Virus record (IMG/VR): IMGVR_UViG_2778261277_000017
Coordinates: 1-38,006 of that record
Length of the DNA: 38,006 nucleotides
DNA from: a virus
Taxonomy: Duplodnaviria > Heunggongvirae > Uroviricota > Caudoviricetes
Direction: 5' to 3' (one strand)
Positions within the stretch are counted from its first letter, which is position 1. The number at the start of each line of letters is the position of its first letter. The translations under genes and the position numbers were made by a program. The notes below the pieces were generated by a model, which had not been told where the DNA came from, made no database searches, and saw nothing but the letters and a program-made list of their open reading frames with translations. Below, piece by piece: positions 4,109 to 34,329 of the stretch.

Positions 4109-4525
4109 TTATACCTCTGAATCAATATCAACTTGGTGGTGAGCAATGGTTTCAACCATGTACCGGATGTGTTCTGCCATGCGCTCCTGAAACTCAACAT
4201 CGTCATCAAACGCACGGGTAATGGCTTTTTTGCTGGCCCCGTGGCGTTGCAAATGATCGATGCATAGCGATTCAAACAGGTGCTGGGGCAGGCCTTTTTC
4301 CATGTCGTCTGCCAGTTCTGCCTCTTTCTCTTCACGGGCGATCTGCTGGTAATGACGCGTCCAGCTCTGAGCCTCAAGACGATCCTGAATGTAATAAGCG
4401 TTCATGGCTGAACTCCTGAAATAGCTGTGAAAATATCGCCCGCGAAATGCCGGGCTGATTAGGAAAACAGGAAAGGGGGTTAGTGAATGCTTTTGCTTGA
4501 TCTCAGTTTCAGTATTAATATCCAT
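4109..4525 (-). CDS. gam: Lambda Gam (RecBCD inhibitor)
   Basis: 138-aa translation matches recalled lambda Gam ([55 protein letters not shown]...). Confidence 0.95.
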
Positions 4526-4623
4526 TTTTTATAAGCGTCGACGGCCTCACGAAACATCTTTTCATCGCCAATAAAAGTGGCGATAGTGAATTTAGTCTGG
4601 ATAGCCATAAGTGTTTGATCCAT
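4480..4623 (-). CDS. kil: Kil (FtsZ inhibitor), lambda-type
   Basis: 47-aa [50 protein letters not shown] from the ATG at 4623. Overlaps gam and cIII as in lambda. Confidence 0.85.
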
Positions 4624-4756
4624 TTTTTGGGACTCCTGGCTGATTAAGTATGTCGATAAGGCGTTTCCATCCGTCACGTAATTTACGGGTGATTCGTTCA
4701 AGTAAAGATTCGGAAGGGCAGCCAGCAACAGGCCACCCTGCAATGGCATATTGCAT
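4592..4756 (-). CDS. cIII: cIII (FtsH/HflB inhibitor), lambda-type
   Basis: Reverse-complement translation from 4756 gives [54 protein letters not shown] (54 aa). Below the 60-aa ORF-track cutoff, found by hand. Confidence 0.9.
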   Translation of the reverse strand: MQYAIAGWPVAGCPSESLLERITRKLRDGWKRLIDILNQPGVPKNGSNTYGYPD

Positions 4757-4828
4757 GGTGTGCTCCTTATTTATACATAACGAAAAACGCCTCGAGTGAA
4801 GCGTTATTGGTATGCGGTAACGCCGCGC

Positions 4829-5197
4829 TCAGGCGGCTTTGATAGTCATATCATCTGAATCAAATATTCCTGATGTATCGATATCGGTAATTCTTATTCC
4901 TTCGCTACCATCCATTGGAGGCCATCCTTCCTGACCATTTCCATCATTCCAGTCGAACTCACACACAACACCATATGCATTTAAGTCGCTTGAAATTGCT
5001 ATAAGCAGAGCATGTTGCGCCAGCATGATTAATACAGCATTTAATACAGAGCCGTGTTTATTGAGTCGGTATTCAGAGTCTGACCAGAAATTATTAATCT
5101 GGTGAAGTTTTTCCTCTGTCATTACGTCATGGTCGATTTCAATTTCTATTGATGCTTTCCAGTCGTAATCAATGATGTATTTTTTGATGTTTGACAT
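4829..5197 (-). CDS. ea10: Ea10-like early protein (lambda ea10)
   Basis: 122-aa acidic ORF (MSNIKKYIIDYDWKASIEIEIDHDVMTEEKLHQINNFW...) at the position of lambda ea10, upstream of cIII in the pL operon. Confidence 0.8.
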   Translation of the reverse strand: MSNIKKYIIDYDWKASIEIEIDHDVMTEEKLHQINNFWSDSEYRLNKHGSVLNAVLIMLAQHALLIAISSDLNAYGVVCEFDWNDGNGQEGWPPMDGSEGIRITDIDTSGIFDSDDMTIKAA

Positions 5198-5212
5198 CTA
5201 TTCATATCCTCA

Positions 5213-5243
5213 CAGATAAAAAATCGCCCTCACATTGGAGGGC
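5213..5243 (-). terminator. Rho-independent terminator-like hairpin upstream of ea10 (minus strand)
   Basis: GCCCTC / GAGGGC 6-bp stem with 6-nt loop at 5226-5243, followed on the minus strand by GATTTTTTAT. Confidence 0.45.
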
Positions 5244-5361
5244 AAAGAAGATTTCCAATAATCAGAACAAGTCGGCTCCTGTTTAGTTACGAGCGACATT
5301 GCTCAGTGTATTCACTCGTTGGAATGAATACACAGTGCAGTGTTTATTCTGTTGTTTATGC

Positions 5362-5387
5362 CAAAAATAAAGGCCGACTATGCGGCC
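5362..5387 (-). terminator. Rho-independent terminator immediately after the 207-aa gene (minus strand)
   Basis: GGCCG / CGGCC hairpin at 5372-5387 followed on the minus strand by TTTATTTTTGG; overlaps the stop codon of the 207-aa gene. Confidence 0.5.
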
Positions 5388-6001
5388 TCGGAAGGAAGTC
5401 CAATCATCTTATTCAAATCTTCTACCCGTAAAGCAGGAAGTGCTGTACTTGCTTTATCTGCTTCTTTTGGTAGCAACTCTTTGCTTTCAGGCCAAACCTC
5501 AATAAGTCGCTTAACTGTTGTGACTGAGTTTAAAGCAGCCCATACATTTGATTCGATATCCTTTTTCTTTGCTTCAAGTTTTTGTTGTAATGAGCAGATT
5601 TCATCAAACCTTTTTGTTATTTCGTGCTCTGCGTCAAACATGCATTTATCTTTTGTCGGAGTAGGGAGCAATATATCTTCGCCGTTGCCGTCTTTCCCAT
5701 ATGAATGCCATCCAACCCTTCTGCCAGATACAGTCAGATAAATTGAAGTAGAATGAACATCGTATGAGTAAAATGAACATCCCATCTTTCCAAGTTCTTC
5801 ACTTATAGCTACCAACTTGGATGATAACTGATCCACTTCCTCAGTTTTCTTTTTACCGCCAAACGCAATAACTCTGGCGTCAAGTGCAAGCTGGTTCTTT
5901 AACTTTGTTACTTCTTCAAGTTCAGTGAAAACCCCAGACTTAATTAAAGCGTTACGAGCGATTTCCTCTTTCATTCTCGTAGTTAAGCGGATTGATGACA
6001 T
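5378..6001 (-). CDS. Hypothetical 207-aa protein immediately downstream of N, where lambda carries sieB/ral; function unknown
   Basis: ATG at 6001 preceded by GAGAGGAATTAAT Shine-Dalgarno. Hydrophilic, largely helical-looking sequence (MSSIRLTTRMKEEIARNALIKSG...). AT-rich compared with flanking lambda genes. No recognisable lambda Ral sequence present. Confidence 0.6.
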   Translation of the reverse strand: MSSIRLTTRMKEEIARNALIKSGVFTELEEVTKLKNQLALDARVIAFGGKKKTEEVDQLSSKLVAISEELGKMGCSFYSYDVHSTSIYLTVSGRRVGWHSYGKDGNGEDILLPTPTKDKCMFDAEHEITKRFDEICSLQQKLEAKKKDIESNVWAALNSVTTVKRLIEVWPESKELLPKEADKASTALPALRVEDLNKMIGLPSEAA

Positions 6002-6012
6002 ATTAATTCCTC

Positions 6013-6339
6013 TCAAATAAGTGGTTTGCTGCCTAATTTCATTTTCTGGCGGCCTGAACAAGTCACACCCATTTCACTGCGTGGCTTGCTGTACCATGTG
6101 CGCTGATTCTTGCGCTCAATACGTTGCAGGTTGCTTTCAATCTGTTCGTGGTATTCAGCCAGCACCGTAAGGTCTATCGGATTCAGTGCGCTTTCTACTC
6201 GTGATTTCGGTTTGCGATTCAGCGAGAGAATAGGGCGGTTAACTGGTTTTGCGCTTACCCCAACCAACAGGGGATTTGCTGCTTTCCATTGAGCCTGTTT
6301 CTCTGCGCGACGTTCGCGGCGGCGTGTTTGTGCATCCAT
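6013..6339 (-). CDS. N: Antiterminator N (lambda-type, divergent C-terminus)
   Basis: MDAQTRRRERRAEKQAQWKAANPLLVGVSAKPVNRPILSLNRKPKSRVESALNPIDLTVLAEYH... is the lambda N arginine-rich motif and core; the last ~25 residues differ from my recollection of lambda N. Confidence 0.9.
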   Translation of the reverse strand: MDAQTRRRERRAEKQAQWKAANPLLVGVSAKPVNRPILSLNRKPKSRVESALNPIDLTVLAEYHEQIESNLQRIERKNQRTWYSKPRSEMGVTCSGRQKMKLGSKPLI

Positions 6340-6537
6340 CTGGATTCTCCTGTCAGTTAGCTTTGGTGATTGGATGGCCGGCGCTGAACCCCGGCTTACT
6401 GGTTAGAGCGCCCGCACTACCAGTGACGCTGTCTTGAGGCGCAGATTGGTTACTGCTTGCCATGAGCGCTGTTTATACATTGGTCGAGCATCAGCCTGCT
6501 CATTCATCCAATCCCAAAGCCTTCTGCTTTGAATGCT

Positions 6538-6569
6538 ACCCTTCTTCAGGGCTTAATTTTTAAGAGCGT
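6538..6569 (-). promoter_or_regulatory. nutL (boxA + boxB) N-utilisation site
   Basis: Minus-strand reading CGCTCTTAAAAATTAAGCCCTGAAGAAGGGT: boxA CGCTCTTA and boxB hairpin GCCCT-GAAGA-AGGG, in the N leader. Confidence 0.8.
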
Positions 6570-6607
6570 CACCTTCATGGTGGTCAGTGCGTCCTGCTGA
6601 TGTGCTT

Positions 6608-6670
6608 AGTATCACCGCCAGTGGTATTTATGTCAACACCGCCAGAGATAATTTATCACCGCAGATGGTT
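6608..6670 (-). promoter_or_regulatory. oL1-oL2-oL3 operators with pL promoter (lambda immunity)
   Basis: TATCACCGCCAGTGGTA (6610-6626), CAACACCGCCAGAGATA (6634-6650), TATCACCGCAGATGGTT (6654-6670). Minus-strand -35 TTGACA (6631-6636) and -10 GATACT (6608-6613). Confidence 0.9.
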
Positions 6671-6821
6671 ATCTGTATGTTTTTTATATAGATTTATTTT
6701 TTGCAGGGTTGTGTGGATTGGGAAGGTGATCGAGAGATCTGAATTGCGATGTTTAGTGAGTTGTATCTATTAATTTTGAAATAAATACAATTGGTTATGC
6801 GTTTTTTGGGGGGCGTTAGGC

Positions 6822-6847
6822 AAAGAAAACCCGGCGCAGATGCCGGG
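6822..6847 (-). terminator. Rho-independent terminator after the 301-aa gene (end of the cI-distal transcript)
   Basis: CCCGGC-gcagat-GCCGGG hairpin (6830-6847) followed on the minus strand by TTTTCTTTG. Confidence 0.55.
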
Positions 6848-6859
6848 TTGTGGTGGAGA

Positions 6860-7765
6860 TCAATGCTTATTTGGGAGTGCTGGTTTTTTTATCGACTCTA
6901 ATAGCTCGGAGGCGTTACTAATCTTTTTGTTCCCAAGGTAATTTGGCAGTTTTTCCATTGCGTAATTATCGTGTAGCCATTTTCTGAACACGCCAAGTGC
7001 CTCAATAGGATAAATCCAAGCTGTTATATGCTTATTTGCAGCTGACTGCCTGTAATTTTCGGGGAATAAATGTGGGTACTGCACCCTTTCCCCGAATTTC
7101 TCAGATAGCCCATTAGCTGTCCAATACTTTCCCCAGTGAATTCCAACACTTCCATCCAAAGATGTGGTGTCATCCATTGGGAATCCTCCTCCGATCAGGT
7201 TCATGGCAATGTCAGCTATCTCTCTGAATACTGCAAAATGAGTTGTCGGTATCTGATCGTTTAGCTTAATCCTTGCTCTATAGTTCTCGAATGAGATATC
7301 TATTGAAGCATTTGGGTTGTAATTTGACTTTTCATAAATCATTCGCTTAAGCGTGTACTCAGCCAAGCGAACAAAATTACCTATTGCGACTGACCTATCA
7401 AAATTGGTGGCATCTAGAGCGTAGTAACGGAGGATAGCCATGCAAACATAGTCAGGATAAGCATGAGTTTCCACGTTTGAGCTATTTAAAACGCGAGTGT
7501 ATAGCTTTTCGACGTTATGAAACCCTTTCTCAGCTAAATACGCAGCTACTTTTTGACCTCTGGGTTTGTTTTTCTCTGTGTTCCAGTTTGATGTGAACAC
7601 CCTCAGTGGCGTGTCATCAATGCCGCATAACTTTGCGAGACCGTAGAGAGTTAGGTAAGGAGTTCCATCATTGAGAACGCCCATAGGAATATCATCAGAA
7701 ACAACCTCTACTACAGGGAAAAGCTGCATTTGATGCAGGGATTCGCTATTGCTGTTAATCGACAT
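6860..7765 (-). CDS. Hypothetical 301-aa protein in the position lambda uses for rexA-rexB (downstream of cI, before oL); candidate prophage-encoded exclusion/abortive-infection gene
   Basis: Single long ORF co-oriented with cI and followed by a terminator. AT-rich compared with cI. No similarity to RexA/RexB as I recall them; no HExxH motif, so not Lit-like. N-terminal region (LFPVVEVVSDDIPMGVLNDGTPYLTLYGLAKLCGIDD) loosely resembles Bro-N/KilA-N-type domains. Confidence 0.7.
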   Translation of the reverse strand: MSINSNSESLHQMQLFPVVEVVSDDIPMGVLNDGTPYLTLYGLAKLCGIDDTPLRVFTSNWNTEKNKPRGQKVAAYLAEKGFHNVEKLYTRVLNSSNVETHAYPDYVCMAILRYYALDATNFDRSVAIGNFVRLAEYTLKRMIYEKSNYNPNASIDISFENYRARIKLNDQIPTTHFAVFREIADIAMNLIGGGFPMDDTTSLDGSVGIHWGKYWTANGLSEKFGERVQYPHLFPENYRQSAANKHITAWIYPIEALGVFRKWLHDNYAMEKLPNYLGNKKISNASELLESIKKPALPNKH

Positions 7766-7851
7766 ATCTTAATGATTTCCTTATTTTTATTGTAGGGATC
7801 TTCTTTTTTATTTCCTACATCTAGATGCGTATAAAGTCTCTTGCTGCGGAC

Positions 7852-8568
<717 letters not shown>

Positions 8569-8575
8569 TTAAATC

Positions 8576-8640
8576 TATCACCGCGAGGGATAAATATCTA
8601 ACACCGTGCGTGTTGACTATTTTACCTCTAGCGGTGATAA
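8576..8640. promoter_or_regulatory. oR3-oR2-oR1 operators with pR and pRM
   Basis: TATCACCGCGAGGGATA (8576-8592), TAACACCGTGCGTGTTG (8599-8615), TACCTCTAGCGGTGATA (8623-8639). pR -35 TTGACT and -10 GATAAT on the plus strand. Confidence 0.9.
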
Positions 8641-8656
8641 TAGTTGCATGTACTAA

Positions 8657-8866
<210 letters not shown>

Positions 8867-8873
8867 ATAACCC

Positions 8874-8905
8874 CGCTCTTACACATTCCAGCCCTGAAAA
8901 AGGGC
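8874..8905 (+). promoter_or_regulatory. nutR (boxA + boxB)
   Basis: CGCTCTTACACATTCCAGCCCTGAAAAAGGGC: boxA CGCTCTTA and boxB hairpin GCCCT-GAAAA-AGGGC. Confidence 0.85.
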
Positions 8906-8984
8906 ATCAAATTAAACCACACCTATGGTGTATGCATTTATTTGCATACATTCAATCAATTGTTATCTAAGGAAATACTTACAT

Positions 8985-9263
8985 ATGCAACTTACAAGTA
9001 CTCGCAAGAAAGCGAATGCAATTACAAGCAACATCCTGAATCGAATTGCTGTACGTGGTCAGCGAAAGGTTGCCGACGCGTTAGGGATTAATGAATCGCA
9101 AATTTCGCGATGGAAAGACAGCTTCATCCCAAAAATGGGAATGCTTCTGGCTGTTCTTGAATGGGGTGTTGAAGACGAGGAGTTGGCGGAACTGGCTAAG
9201 CAAGTAGCCAGAATGCTGACAAAAGAAAAAGCCCCGAAGAACGGCGAATTCTTCGAGGCCTGA
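8985..9263 (+). CDS. cII: cII-family transcriptional activator (homologue, not lambda cII itself)
   Basis: ATG at 8985 preceded by AAGGAAA. Translation has the cII-like HTH and tail (GINESQISRWKDSFIPKMGMLLAVLEWGV). Upstream non-coding sequence looks lambda-identical but the coding sequence diverges. Confidence 0.8.
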   Translation: MQLTSTRKKANAITSNILNRIAVRGQRKVADALGINESQISRWKDSFIPKMGMLLAVLEWGVEDEELAELAKQVARMLTKEKAPKNGEFFEA

Positions 9264-14343: not shown

Positions 14344-14418
14344 GGGTCAGTCGTATAAAGGTCATTACGGAAGGCTGTTAACCTTCTTATCGTGGTTCGA
14401 GTCCACGCTGTCCCGCCA
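14344..14418 (+). tRNA. tRNA gene, anticodon loop CUGUUAA (anticodon GUU, Asn-like)
   Basis: Hand fold: acceptor GGGTCAG/CTGTCCC (one mismatch), T-arm CGTGG-TTCGAGT-CCACG, anticodon arm GAAGG-CTGTTAA-CCTTC, encoded 3' CCA. Confidence 0.7.
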
Positions 14419-14423
14419 AATAT

Positions 14424-14499
14424 GCTGGTTTAGCTCCAATGGTAGAGCAGTCGCCTTGTAAGCGAATGGGTAGCGGTTCAAGTCCGTTAACCAGCACCA
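14424..14499 (+). tRNA. tRNA gene, anticodon loop CUUGUAA (anticodon UGU, Thr-like)
   Basis: Hand fold: 7-bp acceptor GCTGGTT/AACCAGC, D-arm TAGCTC..GAGCA, T-loop GGTTCAAGTCC, encoded CCA. Confidence 0.7.
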
Positions 14500-30954: not shown

Positions 30955-32022
30955 ATGTCACAGAACTGGATGAGACATTTCGAGCTGCAGCTTGTGGACG
31001 GGAACGGTCAGGGAATTGAGCTAAGTGATTTCAAAGTCACCTTTACGATCGACTGGTTCAACATCAGCAGCGCGTCCCGGGTAGGGACTATCAAAATTTA
31101 TAACCTTTCGGCAGATACTGTGAACCGAATTACCGGGCAGGAGTTTTCGAAAGTGCGGCTGATTGCCGGTTACGACGGTATCGCGCCGGAGGTGGCGGCA
31201 AGCGACGTCGGGACCGTGCGCGAAGTCGACGCGGCAGATGTGGGCCAGAGTGATGGCCGCAACTACGGGCTGATTTTCAGCGGAGAAATTCGCTACTCGG
31301 TCACAGGAAAAGACAGCCCTATTGATTCCTATGTCCTGATTCAGGCAGCAGATACGGATCTGGCATTTGCCACCAGTATAACCTCGCAGACGCTGGCGGC
31401 CGGTTACACGGTCGCAGATGTGAACCGTGCGCTGATGAAAGACTTTGAGGCCAAAGGCGCGACCGAAGGACTGACGCCTGAAATGCCTGCTACCGTATTC
31501 CCTCGAGGGCGGGTGCTGTTCGGCATGACACTGCATCTTATGGATAACGTGGCCGGACAATGTGGCGCAACATGGCAATTTGTGGACGGTCAGCGCCAGA
31601 TGGTGGCGAATAACGAGTATGTTCACGACGCGATTGTGCTCAACAGCGCCACCGGGCTTATCGGCATGCCGCAGCAGACTATCGGCAACGGTGTAAACGT
31701 CCGCGCTCTTATTAATCCGAACATCCGGGTTAACGGGCTTATTCAGCTGGATCAGGCTTCCGTGTACCGCACCGCGCTGTCGAACAATGATATTGCGATG
31801 GCTGGTGGGCAGATCACCGACCAGAACACGGACGGAAATATCACGCTCAGCGGCACCACAGCACAACCTGCCAGCATCGCAACGGATGGCGTTTATATTG
31901 TGCGCGGGATTATGTACACTGGCGATACAAGGGGCCAGGCGTGGTACATGGATATGATGTGCGAAGCGCGTGGCGCGGCGGATCTTCGTTCTGCGTCGTC
32001 TTTACAGCGTGAGGTAGGATAG
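30955..32022 (+). CDS. Baseplate hub-like protein
   Basis: 355-aa ORF following the tape measure-proximal genes. Confidence 0.5.
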   Translation: MSQNWMRHFELQLVDGNGQGIELSDFKVTFTIDWFNISSASRVGTIKIYNLSADTVNRITGQEFSKVRLIAGYDGIAPEVAASDVGTVREVDAADVGQSDGRNYGLIFSGEIRYSVTGKDSPIDSYVLIQAADTDLAFATSITSQTLAAGYTVADVNRALMKDFEAKGATEGLTPEMPATVFPRGRVLFGMTLHLMDNVAGQCGATWQFVDGQRQMVANNEYVHDAIVLNSATGLIGMPQQTIGNGVNVRALINPNIRVNGLIQLDQASVYRTALSNNDIAMAGGQITDQNTDGNITLSGTTAQPASIATDGVYIVRGIMYTGDTRGQAWYMDMMCEARGAADLRSASSLQREVG

Positions 32023-32375
32023 TGAAAAAGTGGATTGTTATCGGACTCTGTTTCCTTCCGGGGTTAGCATTTGCTGCGAATCCTGGCGGTATCACGCTTC
32101 AGTGTGGTGGCTACAAATTAGAGTTGATTCCTGATTCATTGTTCAGGATTAATGGTGAGACAGTTACCTCTCAGAAAATCAAAACGCTCGGCAACGGTAA
32201 TGGAATGAAGGCGGATATGGGTCTTATGCCAGCCAAAGACGGTAACAATTACGCTTTCGAGTTCATTCGTCGCCCTGGTACCGAAACGCGTTTCCTGAAC
32301 GTCCAGCTTCTGCAGAACAGCATGGATGCACCGAAAATCATCGGCTCCTTCCCGTGTAAAAAGGTTGATGGTTAA
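32022..32375 (+). CDS. Small secreted protein with Sec signal peptide, embedded in the baseplate module
   Basis: MKKWIVIGLCFLPGLAFA|ANPGG: n-region, hydrophobic core and AxA cleavage motif; no lipobox Cys. 117 aa. Lower GC than flanking tail genes. Confidence 0.6.
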   Translation: MKKWIVIGLCFLPGLAFAANPGGITLQCGGYKLELIPDSLFRINGETVTSQKIKTLGNGNGMKADMGLMPAKDGNNYAFEFIRRPGTETRFLNVQLLQNSMDAPKIIGSFPCKKVDG

Positions 32376-32515
32376 CCAAAAGTTACATTTCTGCATAGTG
32401 TTGAGTTTGTTCACATTCACTAAATAATGATTTTTTATCGCTTGCTAGGTGGTTGCATGATCACTAAACTTTGCGAACTTTTAGCGCTCAGCTAACTTTG
32501 AATAAGTGGTGTATA

Positions 32516-32530
32516 GTCGTTTAAAACGAC
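32516..32530 (+). promoter_or_regulatory. Palindromic candidate operator overlapping a -10-like TATAGT upstream of the 190-aa gene
   Basis: GTCGTTT-A-AAACGAC perfect 7-bp inverted repeat; TATAGT at 32512-32517; about 14 nt upstream of the AGAGGGA Shine-Dalgarno of the next gene. Confidence 0.4.
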
Positions 32531-32543
32531 AGAGGGATTGGGT

Positions 32544-33116
32544 ATGGCGATTAGCTACGCATTTGCGCTGGCAACAATTACACAACAAATGAATCAGGTT
32601 CAGGAAGCTGTTAACGGTGCTTTCAAACCCCTGATCTCTAATGCTTGTGAACTGCCACAACGATTAGATGCTGAAGAGGTATTTCGTCGTTGTACCGCGA
32701 TTGCTGCACGCGCTCAAGAAATCGAAAATACCGCGAAGGAAGGCATGTCTCATCTCGAAGCTTTTCGAAATGGGAGAATCATTGTTGATGAGCTTCCGGA
32801 AGAGTTTTTATCCCATCTCGAAGGTCTTGCCAAGGCATGCCGAAATGCTAAAGGACATTTAGTGGATATGTTCTCTGAAGCGGAAAGGTCCCCTATGTGG
32901 CAAGGCCATCTGCAAATGTTGCGCCCATTAAAACGCAAATATGTTCGTGCGTTGACCGCCGTCGAGAACACTGCAACTCAGTTGGCCGCTGAAGTTAGGC
33001 AATCGCAGCCTTTCCAGGCTGAACTCTTGTCAGATAATGTTACCCGTGAAGAGGCTATTGAACTGATCTCAACATCGCATAAGATGCTGGGAGCCAACGC
33101 CCCTAAATGGATGTGA
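32544..33116 (+). CDS. Hypothetical 190-aa helical protein, upstream partner of the YafO-like gene (candidate antitoxin/regulator of a novel type)
   Basis: ATG at 32544 with AGAGGGA Shine-Dalgarno; 1-nt gap to the downstream gene. Far larger than, and unlike, the Phd/YefM-type antitoxin YafN that partners YafO in E. coli. Confidence 0.6.
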   Translation: MAISYAFALATITQQMNQVQEAVNGAFKPLISNACELPQRLDAEEVFRRCTAIAARAQEIENTAKEGMSHLEAFRNGRIIVDELPEEFLSHLEGLAKACRNAKGHLVDMFSEAERSPMWQGHLQMLRPLKRKYVRALTAVENTATQLAAEVRQSQPFQAELLSDNVTREEAIELISTSHKMLGANAPKWM

Positions 33117-33117
33117 C

Positions 33118-33534
33118 ATGGCAAAAGTCAGTATCACGGGAGAATTGCGTCATTTAGCTGCAGCACATAAGTATGCTCAAATGCTTGCCGATTATATTTC
33201 AAAGGGTTCCCAGTTCTGGTGTTTTGGTTCGTTAGGCGGTTTTGAACGTAACTATGATGCGATGGCTGCCAACATCAGGAAAATTCACTTAAAGCTACCT
33301 GGCGATAAACCCTGGCCTCCAGAAGCATCTCTGAGTGAACGGACATGTGATAATTTTTTGGTATATGCTCAGCATCTTTATATCGATGAACACTATCAGA
33401 TATTGGCAATCATCAGCCCAAACGCTCATCAGCAAGCTGATTCGATGCTTCCCCGGCTGATAAAATTAGCAGAGGAAACCTTCATAGAACTTCCTCCTGA
33501 TGAACTCGAAAAATTGAAAACCTACGATTCATAA
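33118..33534 (+). CDS. YafO-family toxin-like protein (ribosome-dependent mRNA interferase family), tentative
   Basis: 138-aa ORF. Segments ADYISKG, KIHLKLPGDKPWPP, FLVYAQHLYIDEHYQILAIISPNAH and RLIKLAEETF align with what I recall of E. coli YafO (ADFISYK, HIHLANENNPFPP, HLVYCQGAFDEQAWLLIAILKPEPH, KIGKMAEAF). Recall-based, unverified. Confidence 0.6.
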   Translation: MAKVSITGELRHLAAAHKYAQMLADYISKGSQFWCFGSLGGFERNYDAMAANIRKIHLKLPGDKPWPPEASLSERTCDNFLVYAQHLYIDEHYQILAIISPNAHQQADSMLPRLIKLAEETFIELPPDELEKLKTYDS

Positions 33535-33535
33535 A

Positions 33536-33557
33536 CCCGCCACCCGGCGGGTTTTTT
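33536..33557 (+). terminator. Strong rho-independent terminator closing the cargo cassette
   Basis: CCCGCC-ACCC-GGCGGG hairpin followed by TTTTTT, directly after the stop codon at 33534. Confidence 0.8.
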
Positions 33558-33576
33558 GCTTTCTGGAGCCTACTAA

Positions 33577-34329
33577 ATGGCAGTATCTGACCAGACCCGC
33601 AGCGGCGACCTTGCCGAAACATTCAAATCTGAACGGGAAACAACAAAGAATCAGATCCGTGTCGCCTTGCCTGGCATTATTCAGTCATTCGATCCTGATG
33701 CGGTGACGGCGGTTGTGCAGCCTGCTATCCGTTCGGTTGAAAAGGATAATGACGGCAACCGCATTACCAAAAATTACCCATTGTTGGTGGATGTTCCAGT
33801 GGTATTCCCACGTGGCGGAGGATGTACGCTAACGTTTCCGATTAAAGCCGGGGATGAGTGTCTTGTCGTTTTTGCCGATCGTTGTATTGATTTCTGGTGG
33901 CAGAGCGGCGGAATACAGGAACCGGTCGATGACAGAATGCATGATTTATCGGATGCGTTTTGTATTGTAGGCCCCCAGTCGCAGGCGAGGAAGATTAGCG
34001 GTATTAATACCAGTGCCACACAGTTGCGTAGTGACGATGGCAGCACCTATTTTGAGCTTAATCCTGATACCAGGAAAATTAAAATTGTCGCTCCGGGTGG
34101 TCTTGATGTGGTTGCCCCTCTGGCTGATTTTTCTGAGAAAGTAACCATTCATGGCCTGTTAACCTGGATGGGGGGCATGGTGGGGTCTGTTGTTTCTGGT
34201 GTGGCTTCAAAAATCACTGGTGTTGTTGAGTTTTTGGGTAGCGTGAAGGCTAACGGCAAGCCAATCGATGATACGCACACTCATGGCGGTGTTCAGCGCG
34301 GTGGAAGCAATACCGATGGGGTAAACTGA
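33577..34329 (+). CDS. Baseplate spike / gpV-like protein
   Basis: 250-aa ORF with GGAG Shine-Dalgarno; Gly-rich C-terminus (THTHGGVQRGGSNT) typical of gpV-like spike proteins. Confidence 0.55.
   Translation: MAVSDQTRSGDLAETFKSERETTKNQIRVALPGIIQSFDPDAVTAVVQPAIRSVEKDNDGNRITKNYPLLVDVPVVFPRGGGCTLTFPIKAGDECLVVFADRCIDFWWQSGGIQEPVDDRMHDLSDAFCIVGPQSQARKISGINTSATQLRSDDGSTYFELNPDTRKIKIVAPGGLDVVAPLADFSEKVTIHGLLTWMGGMVGSVVSGVASKITGVVEFLGSVKANGKPIDDTHTHGGVQRGGSNTDGVN

Follow-up and report, generated by a model that had tools for sequence, protein, structure and literature searches.

What is a two-gene operon doing among the baseplate genes of an Escherichia coli prophage? The question is raised by a viral sequence of 38,006 nucleotides (nt) (IMG/VR record IMGVR_UViG_2778261277_000017, positions 1 to 38,006), which we refer to here as the window. 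At positions 32376-33565 it carries a cassette of two open reading frames (ORFs), ORF A and ORF B, both on the + strand, inserted in a SEN34/vB_EcoM-606R2-like myovirus prophage of E. coli, with the spike gene on its right and, on its left, the gene that comes after the one for the baseplate hub. A model that had seen only the sequence (the original prediction) read this locus as a toxin-antitoxin (TA)-like or defence module in which a YafO-like toxin is accompanied by a noncanonical partner. That reading is supported by the analysis below, in which the toxin gene matched the YafO family, the two genes proved to be strictly paired, and the partner proved to be something other than YafN. We consider it probable that the cassette is a mobile type II TA module that encodes a new family of antitoxins and that E. 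coli prophages carry in a variable slot as a moron, meaning an accessory cassette complete in itself.

The downstream gene, ORF B (33118-33534, + strand; 138 aa), encodes a YafO-family protein with a RelE/HigB-like fold, which we propose to be a ribosome-dependent mRNA endonuclease. Over positions 12-98 of the 101-position Pfam YafO_toxin profile (PF13957), it scored 62.6 bits (E value, 4e-17), the gathering score being 25, and it also matched phrog_1651. The profile search that had been suggested as a check on the YafO-like motifs of this 138-aa protein was thus clearly positive, and the structure model agreed with it: the model was highly confident (predicted local distance difference test [pLDDT], 94.9), showed a RelE/HigB-type RNase fold, and had RelE/ParE-superfamily RNase toxins as its top PDB matches. 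At the level of fold, ORF B therefore belongs to the RelE/ParE toxin superfamily, as defined by the microbial-RNase-like alpha/beta fold of the RelE, HigB, and YoeB structures. No solved structure had sequence similarity to ORF B, and the YafO family itself is without one. ORF B is 25% identical to YafO of E. coli K-12 over 125 residues, and H57, R75, T76, P101, H104, and E119 are invariant in K-12 YafO and in 25 members of the subfamily, ORF B included. These are residues of a polar or catalytic type, and we assume that they have a catalytic role. The toxin is already named as such by PGAP annotation.

The upstream gene, ORF A (32544-33116, + strand), is the proposed antitoxin. It encodes 190 aa from an ATG preceded by GAGGG; a TTG six bases upstream of the ATG would give 192 aa instead. 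No Pfam, NCBIfam, or PADLOC family was found for it, its sole family match being phrog_35514, a family of unknown function. When 1.84 billion cluster representatives were scanned exhaustively with HMMER, 12 relatives were found; a word-indexed search yielded 34 clusters, all of which are unnamed and come from Enterobacterales. The protein had been described as novel; it is indeed uncharacterized, but RefSeq already lists it (as a "hypothetical protein"), and so does PHROGs. An AlphaFold2 model built from 31 sequences (pLDDT, 78.7) is all-helical: four long helices (residues 3-31, 43-75, 86-115, and 123-154) form a bundle, followed by a flexible, low-confidence linker (about 155-167), a short helix (168-181), and a tail. 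The C terminus carries the motif SHxMLGxxxPKWM, in which S178, H179, and W189 are nearly invariant.

We could rule out that ORF A is a diverged YafN/Phd antitoxin. BLASTP against YafN gave an E value of 0.45, the model is all-helical, and ORF A had no Phd/YefM match in Pfam, while K-12 YafN did match Phd/YefM in the same database. Nor could a separate YafN be hidden upstream, since the 168-nt spacer preceding ORF A is too short to encode a YafN-like protein of 97 aa. The expectation of a helical upstream partner unrelated to YafN was thereby confirmed.

The two genes have the arrangement typical of type II TA systems, being small, adjacent, codirectional, tightly coupled, and coinherited. In the window a single nucleotide separates them (TGA-C-ATG), and the predicted gene sizes and spacing were both correct. 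To see how general the pairing is, we fetched 67 loci, 11 through homologs of ORF A and 56 through homologs of ORF B with at least 48% identity; the latter comprised three loci obtained from a Serratia toxin, 50 viral contigs, and three reference genomes. Both genes were present in 67 of the 67 loci, which lie in several unrelated phage modules, and a gap of 0 to 1 nt separated the genes of every intact pair, of which there were 67, counting the window and 66 of the fetched loci. At all loci to which ORF A homologs of 36-58% identity led, namely in Pantoea, in two metagenomic lineages, in the Flyfo siphovirus Tbat2_3, and in Klebsiella, a YafO_toxin gene of 137-138 aa followed 0 to 1 nt downstream; conversely, an ORF A-type gene lay directly upstream of the ORF B homolog in 56 of 56 loci. 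The conservation of the pair in other genomes, on which the original prediction had staked its proposal, is therefore complete within this sample.

The two genes also diverge together. Among 43 unique pairs, the distances of ORF A and ORF B correlated with a Mantel r of 0.97, a value reached by none of 2,000 permutations, ORF A diverging about 1.3 times as fast as ORF B. Both are under purifying selection, with median ratios of nonsynonymous to synonymous substitution rates (dN/dS) of 0.08 (ORF A) and 0.12 (ORF B).

More remote pairs were found beyond this group. In the immI region of the P22-like phage CUS-3, a 199-aa gene overlaps by 16 nt a 139-aa gene whose product matches Pfam YafO_toxin (E value, 3.2e-11). 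The 199-aa protein aligns with ORF A over 134 columns (hhalign E value, 2.8e-5) and has the motifs AExSxxW..H and SHxxxGxxAPKW in common with it, so that, judged by sequence, remote homology is probable. A YafO-like gene is also present in Proteus and Providencia; its product is 36-37% identical to ORF B, and a 198-aa ORF upstream of it overlaps it by 10 nt. The alignment of this partner with ORF A is collinear, and homology was not demonstrable by hhalign (probability, 3.8%). The Proteus mirabilis ATCC 29906 pair (locus L074, 2414-3411) is not part of a phage: its neighbours are the housekeeping genes sprT and mgtE, a location in keeping with a self-sufficient TA module. The Providencia stuartii pair (L072) adjoins a DUF4145 gene and a helix-turn-helix (HTH) gene. 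A profile search joining all three types of partner returned 59 clusters, all of them unnamed and none with a Pfam domain.

The cassette apparently brings its own promoter. A sigma-70-like promoter is predicted at 32442-32470 (+ strand), with a -35 box TTGCTA (32442-32447), a 17-nt spacer, and a -10 box TAAACT (32465-32470). Its window version scores below the 9-of-12 threshold of a simple scanner, and it was conservation that revealed it: TTGnnn-N16-18-TA(A/C)ACT occurred in 32 of 32 distinct upstream sequences, which comprise three types that cannot otherwise be aligned with one another. With the exception of one variant (100 nt, L006), the distance from the end of the -10 box to the ATG was 70-78 nt. 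A different -10-like box, TATAGT (32512-32517), had originally been singled out because a palindrome lies over it. The palindrome is present as described (32516-32530), but TATAGT is not the conserved promoter: it has no acceptable -35 box at a distance of 16-18 nt, and other variants do not preserve it. As the conserved promoter lies about 45 nt upstream of TATAGT, this palindrome and a second dyad would both fall within the transcribed leader.

The first of these dyads, IR1 (32481-32495, + strand; TTAGC-N5-GCTAA), looks like an operator. Across 16 distinct sequences, 100% of the cells paired, compared to 8-43% in slid controls; two of the five pairs changed on both sides (TTATC/GATAA and CTAGC/GCTAG), a covariation score that 0 of 500 shuffles reached. 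Serratia versions have GATAAC-N4-GTTATC at the same position. The second dyad, IR2 (32516-32530, + strand; GTCGTTT-A-AAACGAC), is the palindrome overlapping TATAGT, and it sits just 5' of the ribosome binding site (RBS) GAGGG (32532-32536). It would fold as an RNA hairpin of -5.7 kcal/mol, and a palindrome of its size arose in 7% of shuffles. In the cassettes of other phages its pairing is kept by compensatory changes (GTCGAT/ATCGAC) or by changes of the G-U type (GTCGTT/AGCGGC); tolerance of the latter fits an RNA stem on the + strand, and from its sequence IR2 looks more like an RNA element, a stabilizer or an attenuator. The place of IR2 is taken in Serratia and Pantoea by a hairpin that is GC-rich, stronger than IR2, and followed by a T-run; it lies within the 50 nt that precede the ORF A start, directly before the RBS and downstream of the cassette promoter, and this terminator-like hairpin could be a transcriptional attenuator. 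It is followed by 5-8 T in loci L013, L016-L018, and L064-L068 (Serratia type) and in L005, L006, and L063 (Pantoea type). An Rfam search of the leader and cassette gave no significant structured RNA (best match, E value of 0.36).

At its other end, the cassette closes with an intrinsic terminator (33533-33565, + strand), consisting of a AAACCCGCC-ACCC-GGCGGGTTT stem-loop followed by a T-run and a GCTTTCTG tail. The GC-rich hairpin (33533-33554) begins inside the ORF B stop codon and has a predicted energy of -17.8 kcal/mol (z, -2.5). The strong terminator that had been assigned to the operon is therefore real, but it is not private to the cassette. A near-identical hairpin with a TTTTTTGCTTTCT tail stands 3' of ORF B in unrelated phages (L009, L011, and L016), the backgrounds being the Flyfo siphovirus, a Klebsiella nin region, and Serratia prophages, and the same terminator (CCCGCC-loop-GGCGGG with the TTTTTTGCTTTCT tail) also ends unrelated cargo at the E. 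coli position (L002-L004). It may be a terminator that is portable and that at the same time provides the homology at which cassettes are exchanged.

That position is a slot with changing contents. On the left it is bounded by a 117-aa gene (32022-32375), which itself comes after the hub gene (30955-32022; "baseplate hub" in PHROGs), and on the right by the spike gene (33577-34329). The cassette has a GC content of 0.441 and its 168-nt upstream spacer one of 0.369, compared to 0.527 in the tail and baseplate genes upstream, so that both the location and the AT-richness first described for it hold. The flanking baseplate genes were present in 353 of 5,426 complete E. coli genomes and the cassette in 37 of these (0.7% of all), always on the chromosome. 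At least six other types of cargo occupied the slot, encoding a DUF2335 protein, a DUF4282 protein, a 243+142-aa pair, a 184+56-aa pair, a 257-aa protein, and a 170-aa protein. When such alternatives are compared, homology is lost immediately past the 117-aa gene's stop codon and is regained precisely at the terminator hairpin. Outside this slot, the same pair lies between the tail assembly and tape measure genes in siphovirus-type prophages of Pantoea and Serratia. The Flyfo siphovirus carries it past its tape measure gene, and in Klebsiella it belongs to a lambdoid prophage, where it occupies the nin region. The cassette thus has the hallmarks of a phage moron, being present or absent between conserved genes, with a promoter and a terminator and with atypical composition; the notion that it is accessory cargo of the tail module was well founded.

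How might such a module work? YafO of K-12, the only member of the family with a known mechanism, cleaves mRNA in a ribosome-dependent manner 11-13 nt downstream of the AUG, as summarized in PMC7781912, citing Zhang et al. 2009. By analogy, ORF B would bind the ribosome, cut mRNA just downstream of the start codon, and stop translation. ORF A, its putative cognate antitoxin, would be made first and be translationally coupled to ORF B. The antitoxins RelB, YefM, and YafN bind their toxins by C-terminal segments, and by analogy the C-terminal helix and tail of ORF A, tethered to the bundle by the flexible linker, most likely wrap and block the toxin. The pair would be transcribed from its own sigma-70-type promoter, which host RNA polymerase should be able to use, making expression in a lysogen possible independently of the surrounding late operon. 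The two leader dyads probably mediate autoregulation or mRNA control, and the payoff may be prophage retention, abortive-infection defence, or both.

Several observations weigh against this interpretation. ORF B scored 31.4 bits against the NCBIfam YafO equivalog PRK09885, far under the cutoff of 153, and is thus a member of the family rather than an ortholog of K-12 YafO, so that its specificity may differ. No recognizable DNA-binding domain or fold was found in ORF A, leaving classic autoregulation by the antitoxin unsupported. ORF A is also about twice the size of a typical antitoxin of the RelE superfamily, and its bundle may accordingly do something more; it could serve in oligomerization, in unconventional DNA or RNA binding, or in sensing. 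The distance correlation of 0.97 would also follow from plain coinheritance of adjacent genes. Finally, in one locus (L054, 2388-2999) ORF A is interrupted while the toxin gene next to it is intact. Compared with L055, its ORF A is broken into three pieces by a G5-to-G4 and an A6-to-A7 change, the only other difference being one substitution in ORF B. We rejected L054 as a natural antitoxin knockout, as two single-base changes in homopolymer length are most likely sequencing or assembly errors.

The extra size of ORF A, a separate and well-folded domain larger than simple neutralization needs, also leads to another explanation, in which the pair is a two-component abortive-infection system against phages and ORF A is mainly a sensor that releases or activates the YafO-like RNase upon recognizing a product of the infecting phage. 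This view partly coincides with the TA interpretation, but here selection would be for defence, and sensing would account for the size of ORF A. The closer family is confined to phages and prophages, where it sits in variable cargo slots under its own promoter, and such slots are known reservoirs of defence genes (PMC9122126); the purifying selection on both genes also speaks for it. We nevertheless regard this explanation as unlikely, since ORF B had no match in PADLOC-DB 2.0 and ORF A only a noise-level one (Cas7_IIId; E value, 0.018), the other occupants of the slot lack strong defence matches, and the distant Proteus version resides outside any phage. A fuller version of the idea, in which the helical bundle of ORF A senses an incoming-phage product and thereby frees the YafO-type RNase while temperate phages swap the system among moron slots through the shared terminator junction, is possible if doubtful.

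It is harder still to see the pair as serving the cycle of the phage that carries it, through host translation shutoff, late timing, or superinfection exclusion, with ORF A as a modulator or cofactor. In most contexts the cassette is co-oriented with late or structural operons, so read-through from late transcripts is possible, and the terminator-like hairpin between promoter and RBS in Serratia and Pantoea hints at conditional expression. Yet the cassette is dispensable, with 37 carriers among the 353 flank-bearing E. coli genomes; the modules that house it differ in function and include the early nin and immI regions; and the promoter conserved in every variant is of the host type, within an architecture like that of known TA operons. 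A role in the phage cycle is therefore improbable. Least credible of all is that the pair is a decaying or inert hitchhiker, with ORF B inactive and kept by linkage alone. The low identity of ORF B to the one characterized YafO (25%) and the rarity of the cassette (0.7% of complete E. coli genomes) could be cited for it, but dN/dS values of 0.08 and 0.12, ORFs that remain intact down to 35% and 49% identity, the invariance of the residues in common with K-12 YafO, and the conservation of promoter, dyads, and terminator all speak against it. The TA module thus remains the explanation that we favour.

Set beside known systems, the proposed TA module has a close counterpart in yafN-yafO of E. coli K-12. 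Both toxins fall into PF13957 with invariant His, Arg-Thr, His, and Glu positions common to both, and in both cases the toxin gene is preceded on its strand by the tightly coupled partner gene, with a gap of 2 nt in K-12 and 1 nt here. The partners differ, however: the yafNO type is defined by a Phd/YefM antitoxin upstream of the toxin, K-12 YafN being a 97-aa protein of that type, whereas the cassette has a 190-aa all-helical protein in its place. ORF B, at 25% identity, also falls under the equivalog cutoff, and the setting is a prophage moron with its own promoter rather than the SOS-regulated dinB operon that contains the K-12 pair. With HigBA, RelBE, YefM-YoeB, and DinJ-YafQ the ORF B model shares the RelE/ParE-superfamily fold; in contrast to the toxins of these systems, ORF B shows no membership at the sequence level and has extra helices (H14-29 and H103-121). 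Their antitoxins carry ribbon-helix-helix, Phd/YefM, or HTH DNA-binding domains, whereas ORF A has none of these. The CUS-3 genes ECRS218_0007 and ECRS218_0008 form a similar arrangement, a 199-aa protein with a 139-aa YafO_toxin protein, both annotated as hypothetical; identity is about 20% to ORF A and 39% to ORF B, however, and both phage type and module are different.

The slot itself recalls the P2 and P4 hotspots described by Rousset et al. 2022 (PMC9122126), where a fixed position between structural genes likewise holds alternative small cassettes. Here, however, the slot runs from the gene after the hub to the spike, and the sampled occupants are without a confident known defence family. 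YafO-like accessory cargo has been reported beside contractile-tail genes in R-tailocin clusters of Pseudomonas (PMC4684702), and YafO-like prophage genes have been reported without an identified antitoxin (PMC10449497). Neither report describes a partner for these Pseudomonas YafO-like "orphans," whereas the present genes have a strictly linked partner family. The census of Leplae et al. 2011 placed YafO-family toxins only on chromosomes, with none on phages or plasmids and with partners that were Phd-type or unclassified (PMC3141249), and a 2011 review gave the family no determined fold (PMC3337138). Relative to this literature, what is new is a defined partner family with strict linkage, spread by phages, the assignment of a toxin fold, and a conserved regulatory layout.

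We regard these results as a modest extension of TA biology and not as a new kind of system; because partner swapping among TA families is well known, they should be useful to the specialist rather than surprising. The YafO family is among the least understood of the type II toxin families. The locus defines a phage-borne YafO subfamily, and the confident model places YafO-like toxins in the RelE/HigB fold class. The strictly linked partner also supplies a candidate antitoxin for "orphan" YafO annotations in these prophages. Should ORF A neutralize the toxin, it would constitute a new family of antitoxins and offer annotation pipelines a practical correction; should it also sense phage, the pair would be a compact new defence module. 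A further outcome is the description of a baseplate-module cargo slot in a prophage lineage common in E. coli, where the shared terminator may mediate exchange.

Among the other occupants of the slot, the 243-aa and 142-aa genes (L004, 2226-3385; also L076, 912-2071) overlap by one base, have no Pfam family for either product, and may be another TA-like cassette; the 142-aa protein has a weak PADLOC match to HEPN_IX (E value, 0.0094). The 184+56-aa pair (L077, 778-1506) includes a 184-aa protein that is weakly PycTM-like (PADLOC; E value, 2.6e-4). The remaining occupants are the 257-aa protein (L078, 848-1621), the 170-aa protein (L079, 752-1264), the DUF2335 protein (L002, 2399-2971), and the DUF4282 protein (L003, 2116-2355). 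Several of the occupants in L077, L078, L079, L002, and L003 look membrane associated, and all are uncharacterized. Given that the PADLOC matches of the other occupants are weak (HEPN_IX and PycTM, as above), we do not claim the slot as a defence hotspot.

The 117-aa ORF at the left edge of the slot (32022-32375) has a signal-peptide-like N terminus (MKKWIVIGLCFLPGLAFA) and belongs to the PGAP family STY1065/STY2022 of phage-derived proteins. It has no Pfam family, its GC content of 0.469 is below that of the baseplate genes, and it adjoins the cargo slot in all relatives. Elsewhere in the window, tRNA-Asn (GTT) and tRNA-Thr (TGT) genes lie side by side at 14344-14499, between the early and late regions of the prophage. 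The stretch from 4500 to 9000, with a GC content of 0.39-0.45 and genes on both strands, is presumably the immunity/early region of the prophage.

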